Shown here: piece by piece, positions 18,481 through 41,201 of the stretch | Layout: every line of letters begins with the position of its first letter | How positions within the stretch are numbered: position 1 is the first letter of the stretch | Source: a virus | Lineage: Duplodnaviria > Heunggongvirae > Uroviricota > Caudoviricetes | Strand: one strand, 5' to 3' | DNA: 42,753 bases | Virus record (IMG/VR): IMGVR_UViG_2663763477_000009 | Notes under the pieces: generated by a model | Told to the model about the DNA's origin: nothing | Seen by the model: the letters and a program-made list of their open reading frames with translations, nothing else | The model's database searches: none | Made by a program: the position numbers and the translations under genes

Positions 18481-19956
18481 TTAGGAGCGCCAAAAAAAAC
18501 CTGAAAACAATATAATAACAGGATAAATTTCAAGGCGACCAAGAATCATAGCTATGCACATTAAATATTTTGCAATGTCATTAAGCACTCCGAATGACGA
18601 TGCAGTAGCCCCAAAACCTAATCCCATATTATTAATACATGCAGCCACTGTTGCAAATGATGTAAGAAAATCATATCCCATACCATTTAACACCAGTATA
18701 AAAAACACCGTGAAGAGAGTATAAAGAAAAAAGAAACTCCATACAGACCTCATTACACGATCTGTAACTATCTTCCCTCCTACATTTACACTCAACAACG
18801 CTCTGGGATGAGAAAGCTGATTTATCTCGTGTTTGCTTTGTTTGAAAAGTATAAGAAATCGAAGTGACTTAATTCCACCACAGGTTGAACCTATACATCC
18901 CCCAAAGAAACTTGACAACAGCAAAAACACTATCGTGTGCGTGGGCCAGTTTGCATAATCCTGCGTAGCTAAACCATTATCAGTGAGCATGGAGCTGGCA
19001 AGAAAAAACGAATGAATAAAACTTCCATGCAAGTCATACATACCTATATGCCAGACCTGGAAAGAGGTAACAATGATCACCCCTAAGGCTATTAACAGAA
19101 AGAAACGAAGTTCAATATCTCTGATTAAAGGTTTTATCGTTTTTCTGCTAATAACAATATACCAAAGAGTGAAGTTGAAAGCCGATAGCAGGGAAAAAGA
19201 ACCAGCCACCAGCTCAACCAAATAGTTATTAAAATATCCGATACTCTCGCTATGAGTTGAGAAACCACCAAGCGAAACTGTGGAAATCCCGTGACAAATA
19301 GCATCAAACAAAGGCATTCCTGCAAGTCTATAACAGACAATACAAGCAATACCTAATAAAGAATAAGTTATCCACAGTGTCCGTGACGTATCGGCCAGGC
19401 GGGGAGTGAGTTTGTCATCCTTAAATGGCCCCGGCATTTCTGACTGATAAAGCTTTGCACCACCAATACCCAATAATGGCAATACTGCAACCGCCAGAAC
19501 AATAACTCCTAAACCACCTATAAAATTTAACTGTGACCGATAGTACAAATATGCCCGAGGTAATGAACTAACATCATCAATTACAGTTGCTCCTGTTGTT
19601 GTTATTCCAGAAACCCCTTCAAACAGAGCATCAATGAACGTTAAATTAAGTTCTGAGTCAATCCATAAAGGGAATGCACTAATAACAGAAAACAAAATCC
19701 AAAACATTACAATTATAATAAACCCATCACGGGTACGTAATTGAATGCCAGATTTCTTAGTTGTATACCACGCTCCGCCACCAATGCAAAAAAATATAAC
19801 GAAAGTTATAAAGAAAACGAACAGGCTTTTTTCTTTATAAAACAATGCTACAACCATTGGTGGCAACATTGAAAGACTATAGAGCCAAACCAGGAACCCA
19901 CACATATGAGTAACAACTCTTACATGAGATGTATTCATATCTAAATATTCTTTCAA
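18481..19956 (-). CDS. trkG: Trk-family potassium uptake membrane protein TrkG (copy 1, full length)
   Basis: 491-aa polytopic membrane protein that I recognise as the prophage-borne TrkH paralogue TrkG. Confidence 0.9.
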   Translation of the reverse strand: MKEYLDMNTSHVRVVTHMCGFLVWLYSLSMLPPMVVALFYKEKSLFVFFITFVIFFCIGGGAWYTTKKSGIQLRTRDGFIIIVMFWILFSVISAFPLWIDSELNLTFIDALFEGVSGITTTGATVIDDVSSLPRAYLYYRSQLNFIGGLGVIVLAVAVLPLLGIGGAKLYQSEMPGPFKDDKLTPRLADTSRTLWITYSLLGIACIVCYRLAGMPLFDAICHGISTVSLGGFSTHSESIGYFNNYLVELVAGSFSLLSAFNFTLWYIVISRKTIKPLIRDIELRFFLLIALGVIIVTSFQVWHIGMYDLHGSFIHSFFLASSMLTDNGLATQDYANWPTHTIVFLLLSSFFGGCIGSTCGGIKSLRFLILFKQSKHEINQLSHPRALLSVNVGGKIVTDRVMRSVWSFFFLYTLFTVFFILVLNGMGYDFLTSFATVAACINNMGLGFGATASSFGVLNDIAKYLMCIAMILGRLEIYPVIILFSGFFWRS

Positions 19957-20075
19957 TTATAACCACCTTGCTGCAATATTATGATTATACTGTATAAAAT
20001 TTAACTCCTCTTAGATCTTACTTCACTGTTCCTTATGAAACAATCATCAAAATGAATCATATTGTAGTTAAGATT

Positions 20076-20552
20076 TTACTTTAAACACTGCTCGGTTATG
20101 TATTGCTGAGCACCTTCAAGTTGGGCCTGCATCATTACCAGTCGTTCCCGGAGGGTGAAATAATCCCGTTCAGCGGTGTCTGCCAGTCGGGGGCTGGTTG
20201 CATTATCCACGCCGGAGGCGGTGGTGGCTTCACGCACTGACTGACAGACTGCTTTGATGTGCAACCGACGACGACCAGCGGCAACATCATCACGCAGAGC
20301 ATCATTTTCAGCTTTCGCATCAGCTAACTCCTTCGTGTATTTTGCATCGAGCGCAGCAACATCACGCTGACGCATCTGCATGTCAGTAATTGCCGCGTTC
20401 GCCAGCTTCAGTTCTCTGGCATTTTTGTCGCGCTGGGCTTTGTAGGTAATGGCGTTATCACGGTAATGATTAACAGCCCATGACAGGCAGACGATGATGC
20501 AGATAACCAGAGCGGAGATAATCGCGGTGACTCTGCTCATTGCTGCCCCCAC
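20076..20552 (-). CDS. rzpR: Spanin inner-membrane subunit Rz (copy 1; without an adjacent holin/endolysin)
   Basis: 158 aa with an N-terminal TM segment and coiled-coil periplasmic domain; Rz1 is embedded in the +1 frame. Confidence 0.85.
20135..20320 (-). CDS. rzoR: Spanin outer-membrane lipoprotein Rz1 (copy 1), embedded in Rz
   Basis: 61 aa with lipobox VVGC and a Pro-rich tail ([14 protein letters not shown]), entirely inside the Rz frame. Confidence 0.8.
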
Positions 20553-20583
20553 AAACAGACTTCACGCTCAATCTCACGACGAG

Positions 20584-22053
20584 TCATGAGACCTTTCCAT
20601 TGCTTACCGCCAGCATATGTCCAGCGACGTAGCTGACAAGAATCATAGCTATGCACATTAAATATTTTGCAATGTCATTAAGCACTCCGAATGACGATGC
20701 AGTAGCCCCAAAACCTAATCCCATATTATTAATACATGCAGCCACTGTTGCAAATGATGTAAGAAAATCATATCCCATACCATTTAACACCAGTATAAAA
20801 AACACCGTGAAGAGAGTATAAAGAAAAAAGAAACTCCATACAGACCTCATTACACGATCTGTAACTATCTTCCCTCCTACATTTACACTCAACAACGCTC
20901 TGGGATGAGAAAGCTGATTTATCTCGTGTTTGCTTTGTTTGAAAAGTATAAGAAATCGAAGTGACTTAATTCCACCACAGGTTGAACCTATACATCCCCC
21001 AAAGAAACTTGACAACAGCAAAAACACTATCGTGTGCGTGGGCCAGTTTGCATAATCCTGCGTAGCTAAACCATTATCAGTGAGCATGGAGCTGGCAAGA
21101 AAAAACGAATGAATAAAACTTCCATGCAAGTCATACATACCTATATGCCAGACCTGGAAAGAGGTAACAATGATCACCCCTAAGGCTATTAACAGAAAGA
21201 AACGAAGTTCAATATCTCTGATTAAAGGTTTTATCGTTTTTCTGCTAATAACAATATACCAAAGAGTGAAGTTGAAAGCCGATAGCAGGGAAAAAGAACC
21301 AGCCACCAGCTCAACCAAATAGTTATTAAAATATCCGATACTCTCGCTATGAGTTGAGAAACCACCAAGCGAAACTGTGGAAATCCCGTGACAAATAGCA
21401 TCAAACAAAGGCATTCCTGCAAGTCTATAACAGACAATACAAGCAATACCTAATAAAGAATAAGTTATCCACAGTGTCCGTGACGTATCGGCCAGGCGGG
21501 GAGTGAGTTTGTCATCCTTAAATGGCCCCGGCATTTCTGACTGATAAAGCTTTGCACCACCAATACCCAATAATGGCAATACTGCAACCGCCAGAACAAT
21601 AACTCCTAAACCACCTATAAAATTTAACTGTGACCGATAGTACAAATATGCCCGAGGTAATGAACTAACATCATCAATTACAGTTGCTCCTGTTGTTGTT
21701 ATTCCAGAAACCCCTTCAAACAGAGCATCAATGAACGTTAAATTAAGTTCTGAGTCAATCCATAAAGGGAATGCACTAATAACAGAAAACAAAATCCAAA
21801 ACATTACAATTATAATAAACCCATCACGGGTACGTAATTGAATGCCAGATTTCTTAGTTGTATACCACGCTCCGCCACCAATGCAAAAAAATATAACGAA
21901 AGTTATAAAGAAAACGAACAGGCTTTTTTCTTTATAAAACAATGCTACAACCATTGGTGGCAACATTGAAAGACTATAGAGCCAAACCAGGAACCCACAC
22001 ATATGAGTAACAACTCTTACATGAGATGTATTCATATCTAAATATTCTTTCAA
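20584..22053 (-). CDS. trkG: TrkG copy 2 with a replaced C-terminus (last 19 aa exchanged for 17 unrelated aa at the duplication junction)
   Basis: Identical to copy 1 until ...CIAMIL, then diverges where the unit joins the endolysin 3' fragment. Confidence 0.8.
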
Positions 22054-22172
22054 TTATAACCACCTTGCTGCAATATTATGATTATACTGTATAAAATTTA
22101 ACTCCTCTTAGATCTTACTTCACTGTTCCTTATGAAACAATCATCAAAATGAATCATATTGTAGTTAAGATT

Positions 22173-22649
22173 TTACTTTAAACACTGCTCGGTTATGTAT
22201 TGCTGAGCACCTTCAAGTTGGGCCTGCATCATTACCAGTCGTTCCCGGAGGGTGAAATAATCCCGTTCAGCGGTGTCTGCCAGTCGGGGGGAGGCTGCAT
22301 TATCCACGCCGGAGGCGGTGGTGGCTTCACGCACTGACTGACAGACTGCTTTGATGTGCAACCGACGACGACCAGCGGCAACATCATCACGCAGAGCATC
22401 ATTTTCAGCTTTCGCATCAGCTAACTCCTTCGTGTATTTTGCATCGAGCGCAGCAACATCACGCTGACGCATCTGCATGTCAGTAATTGCCGCGTTCGCC
22501 AGCTTCAGTTCTCTGGCATTTTTGTCGCGCTGGGCTTTGTAGGTAATGGCGTTATCACGGTAATGATTAACAGCCCATGACAGGCAGACGATGATGCAGA
22601 TAACCAGAGCGGAGATAATCGCGGTTACTCTGTTCATTGCTGACCCCAC
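22173..22649 (-). CDS. Spanin inner-membrane subunit Rz (copy 2, part of the lysis cassette)
   Basis: 158 aa; differs from copy 1 at three residues; its start overlaps the endolysin stop. Confidence 0.85.
22232..22417 (-). CDS. Spanin outer-membrane lipoprotein Rz1 (copy 2), embedded in Rz
   Basis: 61-aa lipoprotein; one Ala-to-Pro difference from copy 1. Confidence 0.8.
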
Positions 22650-23131
22650 AAACAGATTTCACGCTCAATCTCACGACGAGTCATGAGACCTTTCCATTGC
22701 TTACCGCCAGCATATGTCCAGCGACGTAGCTGATCACATGCGCCTTTGATATCGCCCTGGTTTATTTTGCGAAGAAGCGTCGATGTTCTGAAATTGCCAG
22801 CACCCACGTTGTAAACGAATGAGTAAAGAGCGCCGCGCGTTGTTTCCGGTATATCGACTTTGATGTACGGGTTAATTTGTCTGGCGACAGTGGCAAGGTC
22901 TTTATTCAAGAGTGTTTTGCATTCTGCTTTGGTATACGTTTTACCGAGCATGATGTCTTTTCCTGTATGCCCGTGACATACAGTCCATACACCAACAATA
23001 TCTTTGTATGGTATGTAGCTGACACCTTCCAGACCATCGTTACCACTTGGGCCAGTGATTAACACTGATGCTATAGCAATTGCTCCGCCACCAATAGCAG
23101 CAGCAACGACTTTTCGTAATGATGGAGGCAT
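22634..23131 (-). CDS. SAR endolysin (phage-21 R-type lysozyme)
   Basis: 165 aa with an N-terminal Gly/Ala-rich signal-anchor-release segment ([18 protein letters not shown]) followed by a lysozyme domain. Confidence 0.85.
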
Positions 23132-24572: not shown

Positions 24573-25508
24573 TTTTCCTCACATATGTCATATAGTAAAG
24601 GATTATATATACCGTTGTTTTGGACGCTCAAACAGCGAATCAGATCAAATAAAACGCACATTTGTTAACATTTACACAAAGTCTGCGTGGGATATTCTGA
24701 AAGAATATCCATAATGTGGAGAGAATCTATTGAAGTGCATGGTGCCGGGTGCCTCCCGGTGAACAAAATGTTCGTGATACCTGTCGGCGACAGAAAAGGT
24801 TAATGGTATCACCCCACCGCACAGGGGGATTCACCATGCAGGAGTTTTCTTAGCAAACTCACTGCGCGCCCGGCAACTCCCAACCACATAAAATGCGGAG
24901 TTTGTGGCATTTATGCATATAACTCGCAGGAATTATCTTAAAAAACTGATGTCGATCCGGATTAAAAAGAAGCAGGTCATCATCAGATGACTGGAAAAAA
25001 GGAAAACAAAAAATACTCATCATACAGTTTTGATTGCAGGGATGAGCCTGCTATGCACAATATGCAGAATATAAGCAAGATAAAAATATGCAGGCATATT
25101 ATTTCGGATCTTGTTATTAACACAACCTTTTTAATAATCATTTGGCATACAATAAACCAGCCCAAAAAGAACCGCCTAAACAGGCGGTTGGTCAATACAA
25201 AGGATGCTTCGTCTTTATTATAGTAATCTGAGGCGTCGGGTGTCTTGTATCAGACAACATATTGTCCCGCTAAACAGCGAATTACAAACCACCCTGCAAT
25301 GATCTCTCATCTCATTTTATATGAGTTGACGACATCAGGATAACGCATCATCAGCCCCTGCCAAGAAATATCAAAACTCCCGCCAGCAATGTGTTATCAC
25401 AATATTGTAAAAAAAACACAGCACCGAAACTATAACTGGTCTCTGTTATAATTTGGAGCAGAAAGACCAGTTGCCCAACTAGCAGCATTCTCCCCTGCTT
25501 TCCTGACG

Positions 25509-30995: not shown

Positions 30996-31412
30996 CTATA
31001 AATACCGAAGATTTCCTTGATAAAATGCCAGTACACGTTTCATAACTTCACTCTTCCGGCACTCGCGACAGATTATGTTCTGACGCCTGTCATAGCGGCG
31101 TATTTCTCCGTCTGGTAATGACCAGATAAGGTCAGGATCAACCACAACCGTTTTTTTCACCTTTGCCCTGGATAGTTTTTTGCGGGCGTTTTTCCAATCC
31201 TTACGAGCCTGTTCAGACGGGAATAACCCATAGCCAGAGTTGTATACATCGCCACTGGCAACCAACTCTCTGGCAAGAATGCTCATCAGATATCTTGTCG
31301 CACCTGTCTTGGCCTCCAGTTGCCTTAACGTCTCGCGCCCACTCTGGCGTACCAACTCAACAACCTGCTCCTTAATTTTTTCACGCTCTTCCTGTGTAAA
31401 AACTTTTGCCAT
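30996..31412 (-). CDS. Hypothetical protein (basic, C-terminal Cys pair)
   Basis: GGAGG RBS before the ATG (MAKVFTQEE...); backbone-like composition; immediately upstream of the AT-rich cargo genes. Confidence 0.45.
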   Translation of the reverse strand: MAKVFTQEEREKIKEQVVELVRQSGRETLRQLEAKTGATRYLMSILARELVASGDVYNSGYGLFPSEQARKDWKNARKKLSRAKVKKTVVVDPDLIWSLPDGEIRRYDRRQNIICRECRKSEVMKRVLAFYQGNLRYL

Positions 31413-31427
31413 AAGCGCCTCCGGCAA

Positions 31428-32189
31428 TCACTTTTCCGACACAATACGACCGGAGGAATCGACAATCTGTCGAACAATATCCCGGTGCTTGTTCAGCTCC
31501 CGCAGCGCGGCGCAGACTCGCTCCCACTTCTGGACATGATTTTTCGCCCGACGCAGTTCGCGGTTTGCCATATGCAGCGATGGTAAAACTAGGTCATCCG
31601 CTTGCGTTTCAGTAAACGATGGCAGCGACTGCACAATGTCCGCCACAGTTTCTGTTTTAATATCTTCCTGTGTTGCCGCTTCCTGTACTGGTAACGCAAC
31701 ACCGGCTGGCTGAGGAAAGGCTTTACCATCAGTTTCCGCTACCGATGCAGCTTTCGGCTCTGCTGGTAAATTATCGCCCGGCATGCAGTAACGAAATTTA
31801 CTGTTCTGGTTTACGCGAATCAGGCGTCCTTTGCTGATTGCCATTGCCAGCGTTGAAGCAACTTTGCGGGATGTTGTACCGAACAGCGTAGCCAGTTCAT
31901 CCGCCGTTTGTGGTCCGCGTTGTTCAATCGTCGCGGTTAAATCGCACTCTGAGATTTTCACTACAGTTGCCGTGGTGGTTTCTTCCGGCAGTTCTGCCTG
32001 CATTGGCTGTTCCTGCTGAACGTTGTTATCAGCCACACGCCAGGTGTACGCGCTTTTATCAACGAAACCAGCTTTTTTCAGTTCCCATAGTTCGTTCAGC
32101 ACTTCTTCACGACTGATATCAAGTCGCGCAGCAAGTTCTATGGATGTGGCTTTTCCCATTGCTTTCAGTGCGTCAAAAACAGTCTCCAT
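31428..32189 (-). CDS. Hypothetical winged-helix-like DNA-binding protein, downstream of the DnaC-like gene
   Basis: GGGAGG RBS before the ATG ([13 protein letters not shown]...); N-terminal HTH-like segment, acidic middle region. Confidence 0.45.
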
Positions 32190-32211
32190 AAAAATTTCCT
32201 CCCGGTAAAAA

Positions 32212-32952
32212 TTACTTCTCAATTCCTGGCTGGACGACATTCGGACGCCAGCTCTCCCAGTTAAAATTCACCCAGCGCCCGCCGTTCATGGTCATGCGAT
32301 CCATAATCCGCTCGCCGAGCAATGTTTTCATGGCCTCATAGTTCAGGTTTGTCAGCATCCCCACGCTGCGCATCGACGCTGTCCGGCGATCAACAATCTG
32401 GTGCAGCACCACCTGCTCGTTTTTCGTCTCGCGCTGAATGCCAATTTCATCAAGAACCAGCAGATCCACTTCGCATAGTTCCCGCAAAAATTTTTCGCCT
32501 GACTGCCCATCGTCATAGCTGGCGTGCAGGGCACTCATAACATCAGCCACGGTAACCACAATCACTGTCTGACCGTCTTTCAGCAGGCGATTCCCGATAG
32601 CTGCCGCTAAGTGGTTCTTCCCGGTACCAGGTTTTCCGCTGAACGCAAAATTTGTACACCCGGTCATCAGTTCATCAGCGATGGATTTCGCCTGACTCAA
32701 CGCGTATCGCTGCGCTTCGTTCTGCACCTGGTAATTCGAAAACGAGCATTTGCGGTGCAATGGCTGGATGCCTGAGCGATTCAGAATTTTTTCCACCCGC
32801 AACTGACGATTCTGACGGTTGATCTCCTCACAACGTTTCTGGCCTTCGGAAAGTTGCCACTCGCGCCACTCCGCTACCGTCTTGAATGGCGCGGTTACAT
32901 GTGACGGGGCCAGTCTGCGGATACGTTCAAGAACGTCGCCTGTCGCAATATT
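32212..32952 (-). CDS. ydaV: DnaC-like helicase loader (lambda P functional analogue), YdaV-like
   Basis: Walker [10 protein letters not shown] and Walker B LLVLDEIG; an internal ATG (MKNIATG...) preceded by AGGGGGGAA; C-terminal 246 codons of a continuous 536-codon ORF. Confidence 0.8.
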
Positions 32953-33771
32953 TTTCATGGTCCGTTCCCCCCTGAAGCCTGGCGGGATCGCACTGTCCGG
33001 CAACGAGACGGTGTTAACCTGTCGGAGCAACGTCTCAGGTCGAACACCTTTCGGCGCGAACAAGCCCTGGTATTCATTGGCGATGCTGTGTCGAATCACC
33101 TGCTCAGGTGAAAAACCCTGCTGGCGGAATTTTTCCAGCTCCCGTATCGCCCCGTTAGCGCCCTGCTCCGTTCGAATCGGTTTTCGCAATGCCTGGCGAA
33201 ATTCAACCCACTCACGCCAAAGCGAGACAGAAATCCAGTTCGGCAAAGCAATATCCAGAGGGTCAAACTTTTTGACACCTCGATTCCCCCGGGGGGGATT
33301 TAGGGGGGGATCTGTTTTTAGATCTTTATCTGTATCTTTATTAGTTGCCTTTGTGTTGACATCATGTTCAAACACCACTTCAACATCTGTTTGAACACCT
33401 GTTAAATTTCTCTCTTGTTTTGTTTGAACATCTGCTTCCTTTCTGCTTCTTCTGGCCTGAACAGATGCTTTTCCTGCGGCTGATTTTTTGGTTAATTTTT
33501 CCCTGACTGATGCCAGATCTTCCTCAATCCGAAGATGCACCCATTCCTCGCCGTTATCGCAAAAAAACTCCTGCAAGGATGGTTCAACATCAGCCCATCG
33601 CTCGTTAGTCAGACGGGCAATTTTTGCCAGCCTGTTTTTAGGTATTGGCTTTCCTGTTTGCCAGTAATTGAACATCAGCAACAAATACGCACCATGCTCC
33701 TCTGCTGACAAATGCATGGTGTCAGCCAGGTAATCAGCTATGTACAGTTGCATGTATGGTAATGCGGCCAT
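32953..33771 (-). CDS. ydaU: Replication initiation protein (O-like), YdaU-like; reads through into ydaV without a stop in this window
   Basis: N-terminal segment MAALPYMQLYIADYLADTMHLSAEEHGAYLLLM; iteron-like repeats inside its coding region. Confidence 0.7.
33285..33470. repeat. Putative replication origin inside the O-like gene: iteron-like repeats plus C/G homopolymer tracts
   Basis: Three or more copies of TGTTTGAACA and its complement, repeated ATCTG elements, and the tract cccccggggggg-atttag-ggggggg. Confidence 0.45.
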
Positions 33772-33834
33772 AATTGCCCCGTATGATGCTGCCCGGTGGC
33801 TTAGAATAAGCACAAACAGCATGGAAACTTTTGC

Positions 33835-34257
33835 TTAATGAACAATGACAGAATCGTCGGAAGACCCGCCGCCGCTGAAATGCGCTTTCCGGTAAACGGC
33901 TTGGACTGCATCATCATGCGCATCAATTGCCGTACTTAACGCTTCCTGCGCCGCCAGTAATGCACGGCGTTCCAGGGTATCGAAGATGCAGAGTCGGTGA
34001 CGCAGCTCGCGCGGAAGGATTGCCAGAATTGCTGGGATCAGCTTCTGAATTTTTTCTCTTTGCGTTTTCGTTTCACCTTTCAACCAACGGTGATAGATAT
34101 TCTGCTGATTATTCCAGTCCTTGCCTGGTACCAGGGGCAATTCGCCGCCCCCCTGGCGCAGATATTCTTCAGTAATGGCATTGGCTACCCATGCCTGCCC
34201 TTTTTCGGCTGCCAGGGCTAACAACACTGACTCGATGTGCTCATGCTTGATTTTCAT
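33835..34257 (-). CDS. ydaT: YdaT (cII-position protein of the Rac immunity region)
   Basis: 140 aa, matching the remembered YdaT length; directly downstream of ydaS. Confidence 0.75.
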   Translation of the reverse strand: MKIKHEHIESVLLALAAEKGQAWVANAITEEYLRQGGGELPLVPGKDWNNQQNIYHRWLKGETKTQREKIQKLIPAILAILPRELRHRLCIFDTLERRALLAAQEALSTAIDAHDDAVQAVYRKAHFSGGGSSDDSVIVH

Positions 34258-34508
34258 GAATCAACTCCCATCAGCTTTTTCGTAGTAGTTTTATTTCTGC
34301 CAATAGTTAAAATTACATCAGCAGAAAATAATCCGTTTGATGCATGAGCGATTTTTTCAGCGTAATTTGTTTCGCCGGTATATTCTGTGCGAGGCAATTT
34401 TCCGTTATCCATCCATTTGTAGATTGCTCTTTGGCTGACACCACAAACGTCGGCCACAACAGAAACGCGAACAGTTTTGATTACATCTTCAAGTGTTTTC
34501 TGGTTCAT
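34254..34508 (-). CDS. ydaS: YdaS (Cro-like HTH protein)
   Basis: HTH segment VCGVSQRAIYKWMDNG; divergent from racR; start taken as MNQKTLED (the track ORF extends further upstream). Confidence 0.7.
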   Translation of the reverse strand: MNQKTLEDVIKTVRVSVVADVCGVSQRAIYKWMDNGKLPRTEYTGETNYAEKIAHASNGLFSADVILTIGRNKTTTKKLMGVDS

Positions 34509-34569
34509 ATCACCCTCACAATGTGAACTTTGAGTACATGCTATAACAGAACTGACAGTACATTCAAGA
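34509..34569. promoter_or_regulatory. Divergent racR/ydaS promoter-operator region (OR-like)
   Basis: Two direct AGTACAT repeats about 24 bp apart (around 34534 and 34558) in the 60-80 bp between divergent repressor-like and Cro-like genes. Confidence 0.4.
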
Positions 34570-35007
34570 GTGAATATCATTGAACTTATGGTTCATGAAG
34601 ATAAAGCGCGTAAAGAGTTCGCCAGTAGGCTTGCGCTAGCCTGTGAAAACGCTGGTTATGAACAACATGGAAGGCAGGCAGAAATTGCCCGTCGAATGAA
34701 ATTAACACCAAAAGCGGTTAGCAAATGGTTTAATGGCGAAACAATTCCTCGCCGAGAGAAATTAAGGGAATTAGCAACACTCATTGGAACAACACCAACC
34801 TATCTTTTGGGAGAGGATACAGAAGAAAGTGGACAGGTACGTTTCTATCAGGAGTTAAATCCAAGACAAAAAATCATCATTGACCTTCTGGACGAGCTCC
34901 CTGACAGTGAGACAGATGAACTTTTAAAAACTCTTGAGGAGAAAAAACAGAAGTACAATGCAATTTACGAAGAGCTAGCACGAAAGAAAAAACAAAAAGC
35001 CTCTTAA
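34570..35007 (+). CDS. racR: Prophage repressor RacR (cI-like, HTH)
   Basis: HTH segment RQAEIARRMKLTPKAVSKWFNG; divergent from ydaS; the track start is a GTG and the first ATG is 18 nt further in. Confidence 0.75.
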   Translation: MNIIELMVHEDKARKEFASRLALACENAGYEQHGRQAEIARRMKLTPKAVSKWFNGETIPRREKLRELATLIGTTPTYLLGEDTEESGQVRFYQELNPRQKIIIDLLDELPDSETDELLKTLEEKKQKYNAIYEELARKKKQKAS

Positions 35008-35068
35008 ACCAGCATAAATCCGGTAGCGTCCCCCTCCGGGTTTGTGCTTCACTTTATCCCATCTCATT

Positions 35069-35125
35069 TTTTTACACACAAAATGTACTTATAGTACTTT
35101 ACATCAATGAACACAAAGTACATTA
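35069..35125 (+). promoter_or_regulatory. Early-left promoter/operator candidate (OL/PL-like)
   Basis: Cluster of GTAC-centred inverted repeats (AAATGTACTT / AGTACTTTACAT / AAAGTACATT) with TTTACA and TATAGT hexamers, between racR and the rightward early genes. Confidence 0.35.
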
Positions 35126-41012: not shown

Positions 41013-41201
41013 ATGTATAAAATTACCGCCACTATTGAAAAGGAAGGTGGCACTCCTACTAACTGGACAAGATATTCAAAATCTAAACTAACGAAATCAG
41101 AATGCGAAAAAATGCTCTCAGGTAAAAAAGAAGCAGGCGTTTCCAGAGAGCAGAAAGTAAAACTGATAAATTTTAATTGCGAGAAACTTCAGTCCTCGTG
41201 A
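41013..41201 (+). CDS. ydaC: YdaC-like small protein
   Basis: GGAGG RBS 5 nt before the ATG (MYKITATIEKEGGTPTNWTRYSK...); lies between ralR and xisR. Confidence 0.6.
   Translation: MYKITATIEKEGGTPTNWTRYSKSKLTKSECEKMLSGKKEAGVSREQKVKLINFNCEKLQSS

Follow-up and report, generated by a model that had tools for sequence, protein, structure and literature searches.

The replication origin oriJ of Rac, the best-known cryptic prophage of Escherichia coli K-12, was reportedly defined by cloning by Diaz et al. in 1979, and oriJ plasmids are said to have been studied by Potrykus et al. in 2000. Rac has been reported to carry an active origin, oriJ (PMC3945230), and PMC11014345 cites Potrykus 2000 for the oriJ of Rac; recent papers call the extent of the prophage's replication defect unclear. 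In lambdoid phages the origin comprises iterons together with an AT-rich tract in the middle of gene O (PMC7466680). Here we consider a 42,753-nt stretch of viral DNA (IMG/VR record IMGVR_UViG_2663763477_000009; hereafter the window) and argue, from sequence comparison, that its segment 33286-33430 is likely to be the replication origin of a Rac-type lambdoid prophage – probably oriJ – situated inside its own initiator gene, ydaU. A specialist in lambdoid phages would expect an origin in an O-like gene; what is added is the base-level map, in an initiator family that has had little study, the layout shared across a protein family and the likely function of DUF1376, the domain that YdaU carries. 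In the accessible literature we found neither a base-level map of oriJ nor a function for ydaU or ydaV, and no paper on DUF1376 that treats an origin; the K-12 RefSeq record NC_000913.3 annotates no origin feature for this stretch.

The sequence around the segment is that of a Rac-type lambdoid prophage of E. coli, the same type of prophage from which oriJ is known. Over 32212-33822 identity is 99.2% to ydaV-ydaU of K-12 Rac and 99.6% to strain 2013C-4538, while 33285-33470 shows zero base differences from K-12 Rac. The gene order – a divergent repressor gene (cI-type), a cro-like gene, ydaT (cII-like), ydaU (O-like; 32965-33822, minus strand, 99.2-99.6% identical to the annotated ydaU of K-12 and 2013C-4538) and ydaV (DnaC-like) – is that of a lambdoid immunity-replication module. 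YdaS and YdaT of a related prophage are analogues of Cro and CII, with the replication genes following them (PMC8630535), and this places ydaU in the position of gene O and ydaV in that of gene P. The likeness to the origin of lambda and the Stx phages (ori-lambda) goes further: the putative origin lies within the initiator gene, between the parts that code for DNA binding and for loader binding; along the direction of transcription the AT-rich tract follows the repeats; the module stands after genes of the cI, cro and cII types; and the repeats vary with the N-terminal module of the initiator while the C-terminal end matches the type of loader. The differences are equally plain. Lambda has four 19-bp iterons, whereas the units here are of 10 bp at a spacing of 11-12 bp; the loader is DnaC-like rather than P; the initiator, a DUF1376 protein, is unrelated to O in sequence; and the AT-rich part of DUF1376 relatives is a short-period repeat such as (GATACA)n.

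The first-pass annotation of this DNA had pointed to a sequence present, with its complement, at least three times within the ydaU-like gene, and both the repeat and its location were borne out. TGTTTGAACA is exact at 33388-33397 and 33421-33430 on the plus strand and its reverse complement at 33365-33374, with no further exact copy in the window; the region corresponds to ydaU codons ~118-179, between the DUF1376 domain (residues 22-104) and the C-terminal domain. The 42.7-kb window contains the dyad pattern TGTTNNAACA three times, each time within 33365-33430, where 0.01 would be expected in 186 nt (Poisson P ~4e-7). The ATCTG repeats mentioned alongside are likewise real, with five in 33285-33470 against 0.57 expected, and ATCTTTAT occurs twice, 12 nt apart. 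The motif GATGTTSAA is found five times in the window, four times in ydaU, all on the minus (coding) strand; the mean for shuffled sequences was 1.2, and 0 of 100 shuffles reached five.

Read along the coding strand, the units form an ordered series. Unit 1 (33421-33430; TGTTCAAACA) is an outlier 33 bp upstream of the array, and the outlying unit reads GCAGATGTTCAAACA. After 33 nt come four units at 11-12 bp spacing – TGTTCAAACA, TGTTGAAGTG, TGTTTGAACA and TGTCAACACA – of which the first and third make a perfect inverted repeat with a 13-nt spacer. The left arm of this pair is unit 2 (33388-33397, TGTTCAAACA), followed at 11 bp by a degenerate unit (33378-33387, GATGTTGAAG on the minus strand); the right arm is unit 3 (33365-33374, TGTTTGAACA), followed at 12 bp by degenerate unit 4 (33353-33362, minus strand, TGTCAACACA), which aligns to the CAACG unit of relatives. 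Units placed about one helical turn apart would put bound protein on a single face of the DNA. Variation among close relatives is sparse: for unit 1, phage Rac-SA53 and 7 of 80 close relatives show CAAACA changed to CAAAAA, and unit 2 is constant among the close relatives listed, even where the flanks differ (locus L084, Rac-SA53).

The DNA that follows the array is unusually weak. GC content is 36-37% at 33300-33500 against ~52-58% in the flanks, and the predicted DNA-unwinding element, 33308-33347, is the least stable 40-mer of the immunity-replication module (31428-35007); measured with a 30-nt stability window, just 98 of the 42,724 positions of the whole window are less stable. Its coding strand (AACTAATAAAGATACAGATAAAGATCTAAAAACAGATC) is purine-rich, with GAT every 6 nt (GATACAGATAAAGATCTAAAAACAGATC) and two GATC sites, at 33309 and 33321, and it is a degenerate counterpart of the (GATACA)n found in relatives. 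We also considered GATCTGTTTTTAG (33309-33321) as a 13-mer of the kind present in oriC, and discarded it: 28 matches to the consensus at <=2 mismatches against 22 expected is not significant.

Comparison with the DUF1376 family at large bears directly on whether this layout means anything. Direct protein search returned only near-identical YdaU; a search of sequence clusters gave 13,029 cluster representatives with the domain at E <= 0.001, nearly all starting MAALPYMQ, and distant relatives were reached through these representatives and an alignment-based genome scan. The scan, with one genome per species, produced 80 loci ranging in identity from 100% down to 39%; the test of repeat clusters was run on 79 of them and that of tandem repeats on 78. 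The layout proved to be shared from Enterobacteriaceae to Alphaproteobacteria, with interchangeable C-terminal modules. In Citrobacter, Enterobacter, Kluyvera, Pantoea, Serratia, Rahnella, Klebsiella, Pseudomonas, Propionivibrio and Azotobacter the DNA after the domain follows the consensus ...AACGACCGTTCAACG-GnCGTTGA...CCGTTTGAACAG...CAACG...AATAAAGATACAGATACAGATCTAAAAGA and then diverges into several C-terminal modules. Repeat motifs specific to particular lineages – CGTTSAACG, GCAATGC, CAAGCATTG, CGAACGTA, CGTCCGCT and others, all of these but the first from more distant lineages – occupy the same place, and this turnover of motifs between lineages argues against the mere inheritance of one sequence. 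Distant lineages carry short-period tracts (CAGGAA, TCAGAA, CAGAA) after the repeats.

These impressions are matched by counts. The densest short-repeat cluster of the locus coincided with the post-domain stretch in 36 of 79 loci, where 7.2 were expected and 0 of 200,000 random placements reached 36, and an exact tandem repeat of period 4-8, mostly (GATACA)n, followed the repeats in 25 of 78 loci against 2.0 expected. GTTSAA reaches a density of 5.9 per kb in the post-domain stretch versus 1.19 per kb elsewhere; its spacings peak at 11 bp (16 cases), 22 bp (8) and 33 bp (5), and every reading frame is represented among its sites (28, 40 and 16). In the domain's conserved four-fold codons (n=29) the commonest third base reaches an average frequency of 0.51; the third bases of repeat codons are close to fixed, with TCA in 21 of 21, ACG in 20 of 22 and GTT in 23 of 23.

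The domain is present in 29 sequenced phage records. Its gene adjoins a helicase-loader gene in Rac-SA53 and in the Pseudomonas phage UFJF_PfDIW6; some Acinetobacter phages have a gene annotated as a replicative helicase at the domain match. UFJF_PfDIW6 has an inverted pair of its own, CGTTCAACG/CGTTGAACG, likewise with a 13-nt spacer, and its palindromic CGTTSAAC sites, four in number, are all confined to the DUF1376 gene, against 0.34 expected in the whole locus. From plasmids the domain is nearly absent (12 of 72,556 records, almost all of them very large replicons); we had entertained plasmids with the domain as their replicon as an independent functional hint, and set this aside for want of more than those records. 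In loci from Pseudomonas, Kosakonia and Phytobacter (L110, L113-L115, L117) an insert of ~100 residues (...GYVYFI...IGYSKNPWARLSELR...GEWF...) stands between DUF1376 and the TDTD tract, and the DNA that codes for it has repeats of its own, CCGTAG/CTACGG (AGCTACG).

Mosaic relatives allow the repeats to be followed as modules are exchanged. Many E. coli prophages match the window just to 33326 or to 33219-33222, retaining ydaV and the C-terminal half of ydaU behind an unrelated N-terminal module (MASNWIKLEV...). In these relatives the repeats change together with the N-terminal module, to GCGTTAC/GTAACGC: seven of the eight exact GCGTTAC copies of a 6.1-kb locus with the alternative module lie in or just upstream of its gene, three GTAACGC-N5-GCGTTAC palindromes are among its repeats, and after the repeats come a purine-rich run, GAGGAAGAGGAAGAGGAAGATC, and then CCCCCTAAATCCCCC. 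Rac-SA53 presents the converse arrangement, with the DUF1376 module and units 2 and 3 kept and followed by a DnaT-type domain and a lambda-P-like loader.

The alternative module itself – seen in L003 (3632-4072; E. coli 2012C-4227), L004 and L006 – has no Pfam match and belongs to PHROG 2509. Its palindromes, ~200 bp apart, fall one each in the linker, within the DNA that codes for the domain and upstream of the gene, a layout unlike the compact DUF1376 array. In a further locus (L008; IMG/VR UViG_2537561944_000017) homology to ydaU stops in the AT-rich stretch (~33330) after ...AAAGATAC, and unrelated TGAACCGCCCCGGGTTTCC... follows; the break looks like the end of an insertion sequence.

What the protein might do can be read from its parts. 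The DUF1376 coding region (33511-33759, minus strand; residues 22-104 by Pfam) is predicted to specify a winged helix: the structural model of the domain (predicted local distance difference test, pLDDT, 85.6) matches winged-helix domains that include ORC/Cdc6 and a plasmid initiator. YdaU matches PHROGs families named 'primosomal protein' and 'replication initiation O-like'. A Pfam scan of YdaU finds DUF1376 alone and no match to Phage_rep_O, the lambda O family, and the origin-like element is therefore not a relative of ori-lambda in sequence but would work alike. The C-terminal domain (32968-33267, minus strand), which ends in the tail IPPGFRG, is presumed to contact the helicase loader; its DNA is 92-98% identical in prophages with a different N-terminal module. 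The loader gene, ydaV (32212-32958, minus strand), codes for a DnaC-like AAA+ protein (Pfam IstB_IS21, E 1.7e-20, and Bac_DnaA; PHROG 50 'DnaC-like helicase loader', E 4e-85). Across loci all 12 IPPGFRG tails are paired with a DnaC-like loader and all 6 acidic tails with a P-like one (agreement in 18 of 18), an association to which physical linkage could contribute. By analogy with lambda O, whose C-terminus binds P, YdaU may divide its labour, the N-terminus going with the origin and the C-terminus with the loader.

Two other known systems offer partial parallels. Iteron origins of theta plasmids with winged-helix Rep proteins (for example the RepA_N initiator 4pta) share a predicted winged-helix initiator, helix-phased sites and an adjacent AT-rich element; they differ in that here the sites are inside the coding sequence of the initiator. 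The C-terminal part of YdaU is weakly like the C-terminal domain of DnaT (2ru8, E 0.0027), primosomal protein I of PriA-type restart, and a clear DnaT domain follows DUF1376 in Rac-SA53 and in many relatives; DnaT, however, has neither DUF1376 nor cognate repeats, and the similarity is limited to the exchangeable C-terminal module.

On the model that lambda provides (PMC7466680), a sequence of events can be envisaged in which YdaU would bind, open the origin and recruit the loader. DUF1376 would bind the units, whose core is TGTT(C/G)AA; the inverted pair TGTTCAAACA-N13-TGTTTGAACA, the two degenerate units and the outlier, set about one helical turn apart, would assemble an O-some-like complex; this complex would strain and open the AT-rich, GAT-periodic stretch 33308-33347, with the G/C tract 33286-33309 as the boundary of the opening; and the C-terminal domain of YdaU would recruit YdaV, the DnaC-like loader, and with it the host's DnaB helicase. 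Early rightward-type transcription through ydaS-ydaT-ydaU probably assists, as in lambda. The scheme translates into a testable map – binding units at 33353-33430, unwinding stretch at 33308-33347, G/C boundary at 33286-33309 – and would give a large family whose function is still entered as unknown a likely role, that of an origin-binding initiator. It would also furnish a simple rule for locating the origins of phages that carry DUF1376, and a clear instance in which a DNA element that overlaps a gene has shaped the coding sequence. A far more remote conjecture is that, throughout the DUF1376 initiators, what the origin requires of the DNA, and not what the protein requires, might set the sequence of the linker peptide (RST..., TDTDTD, PPLNPP).

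A number of observations weigh against an origin at 33286-33430. The units are short and few, being of 10 bp where those of lambda are of 19 bp, with three exact and two degenerate. No DnaA box lies within 31401-35070, and the count for the window as a whole is that expected by chance. The loci compared are mutually related, and the tests of position overstate their independence. One paper's 'oriJ' primers for quantitative PCR amplify 32547-32701, inside ydaV and 600-900 bp away, and K-12 Rac has been described as replication-defective (PMC11014345). Part of the conservation of the DNA may stem from a conserved linker peptide (N-D-R-S-T ... T-N-K-D-T-D-T-D-L-K). Finally, two of the four GATGTTSAA sites of ydaU fall within conserved peptides of the domain and may be incidental. 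One, GATGTTCAA at 33668-33676 (minus strand; codons M-F-N), is probably a by-product of the conserved peptide LMFNYWQ. The other, GATGTTGAA at 33583-33591 (minus strand; codons D-V-E), may merely result from conserved protein sequence; its Val codon has stayed GTT in 21 of 23 relatives, which makes it the most conserved four-fold site of the domain, and UFJF_PfDIW6 has two copies of CGTTCAACG at the equivalent place.

The peptide deserves to be pressed further, for if the repeats had no function at the level of DNA they could be a by-product of a charged, low-complexity linker, or a chance feature of an AT-rich coding stretch. The region does encode such a linker (KEADVQTKQERNLTGVQTDVEVVFEHDVNTKATNKDTDKDLKTDPPLNPP), and parts of it, NxRST and TNKDTD, are conserved in relatives. 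Yet the same DNA motif is read in different frames of one gene (in Rac as DVQT/GVQT and as VFEH, in Rahnella as DRST and as TVQR), repeat codons are fixed at their synonymous positions, spacing goes in multiples of 11, and some tandem repeats in several relatives have a period of 5, a number not divisible by three; we regard a pure by-product as very improbable. Scarcely better placed is the idea that the units are sites for a regulatory protein – YdaU as autoregulator of ydaU-ydaV, for example, or YdaT or another regulator at an operator – with the origin elsewhere, for instance in ydaV. An inverted pair with a 13-nt spacer is operator-like, the published primers just mentioned are within ydaV, and the sites of the alternative module are found upstream of its gene as well. 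The units lie in mid-gene, however, 350-450 nt from the start; a weak-duplex, short-period tract directly follows the sites in many relatives; YdaT of CP-933P has its site of action at the promoter between ydaS and ydaT (PMC8630535); and we saw no comparable repeat cluster in ydaV. That explanation too we judge very improbable. The proposal of a lambda-like origin inside an O-like gene, with which the first-pass annotation began, is supported by computation on several counts: position, phasing, low stability, a motif independent of frame, fixed synonymous sites and the turnover of repeats.

The C/G tract at 33286-33309 invites a separate weighing. Its runs are C5 (33286-33290), G7 (33291-33297), ATTTA (33298-33302) and G7 (33303-33309); the tract had been rightly singled out at first pass, though with one G too many. 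It contains two of the four runs of G or C of at least 7 nt in the window, reads C7-TAAAT-C7-G5 on the coding strand, encodes PPLNPPRG and forms a GC-rich boundary beside the AT-rich stretch, at the junction with the exchangeable C-terminal module. Since a C5 version also follows the alternative N-terminal module, the tract belongs to the start of the C-terminal module. It is possible, if on balance unlikely, that the tract and its flanks are chiefly a conserved junction for module exchange and a proline hinge instead of a functioning element of the origin. Breakpoints in the homology to other prophages at 33316-33326, the joining of two unrelated N-terminal modules to the same GATCTAAA...CCCCCTAAATCCCCC, and the start of other C-terminal modules directly after ...ACAGATC all speak for a junction. 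But a junction is compatible with an origin, that of lambda also lying at a domain boundary, and a GC-rich stretch after the AT-rich tract recurs in distant relatives with other C-terminal modules, as C-runs or GCGCGC. Slipped-strand mispairing in the homopolymers, which would make ydaU phase-variable, had also been raised at first pass; the runs exist – two of G7 and one of C5 within 24 nt – but as slippage sites they find weak support. Of 77 close relatives with the tract, 73 share C7/C7/G5; two carry substitutions, a single one shows C6, which shifts the frame, and another an in-frame 12-bp duplication of TAAATCCCCCCC. Strain NCTC9112 reads C8G4 on the coding strand. Given identical run lengths in 73 of 77 the tract is not hypervariable, and as the lone 1-nt loss, seen in an assembly, could come from a sequencing error while the remaining variants are substitutions, we rejected phase variation as exceedingly improbable. 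A role for the tract in the origin itself can be imagined from folding predictions. The plus strand at 33291-33309 fits a G-quadruplex pattern (four G runs of at least 3, loops of 1-7 nt), one of two such matches in the window, and the predicted single-strand fold has -17.8 kcal/mol with a three-layer quadruplex versus -7.1 without. On opening of the AT-rich stretch, a quadruplex of the G-strand, or an i-motif of the C-strand, might hold the bubble or mark the place of helicase loading; G7-ATTTA-G7 would then be a bacterial-virus counterpart of the G-rich elements at animal origins, although we hold this to be a long shot. In a distant alphaproteobacterial relative, a metagenome-assembled genome of Thalassobaculaceae (L129), C7-TA-C6-GA-G6 occurs ~230-260 nt past the domain, after repeats and an AT-rich (TTAGA)n-like stretch, and resembles the C7-TAAAT-C7-G5 of Rac despite an unrelated C-terminal module.

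Several minor features of the locus remain to be recorded. The annotated start of ydaU (MLFVLILSHRAASYGAIM..., 33771-33822) adds 17 residues that are absent from relatives; because nearly all the listed cluster representatives and genome loci begin MAALPYMQ it is probably too far upstream, the true start probably being the Met at 33771. At the other end of the gene GAA replaces the ydaU stop TAA (32965-32967, minus strand) and yields an in-frame YdaU-YdaV reading frame of 536 aa, which could be a real fusion of initiator and loader or a sequence error. At the ydaU stop the three reference genomes have TAA, as does each of the 81 junctions matched among the close relatives studied, and the change, at 32967, is one of seven differences from all three references within 32275-33028, mostly A/T to G/C.

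A scan of 32900-34700 for promoters and terminators gave nothing exceeding the shuffled background, and no known RNA family was found in the region. Elsewhere in the window the Rfam matches above gathering score were the RalA antitoxin small RNA, beside ralR, and the small RNA STnc100, with sites at 41019-41197 (minus) and 24683-24869 (minus). A tandem duplication at 18540-22733, which may be real or an artefact of assembly, consists of a 2,097-bp unit in copies ~99.7% identical, each containing a gene for a trkG-like potassium transporter (open reading frames 18481-19956 and 20584-22053) and an Rz-type lysis gene (20076-20552 and 22173-22649).

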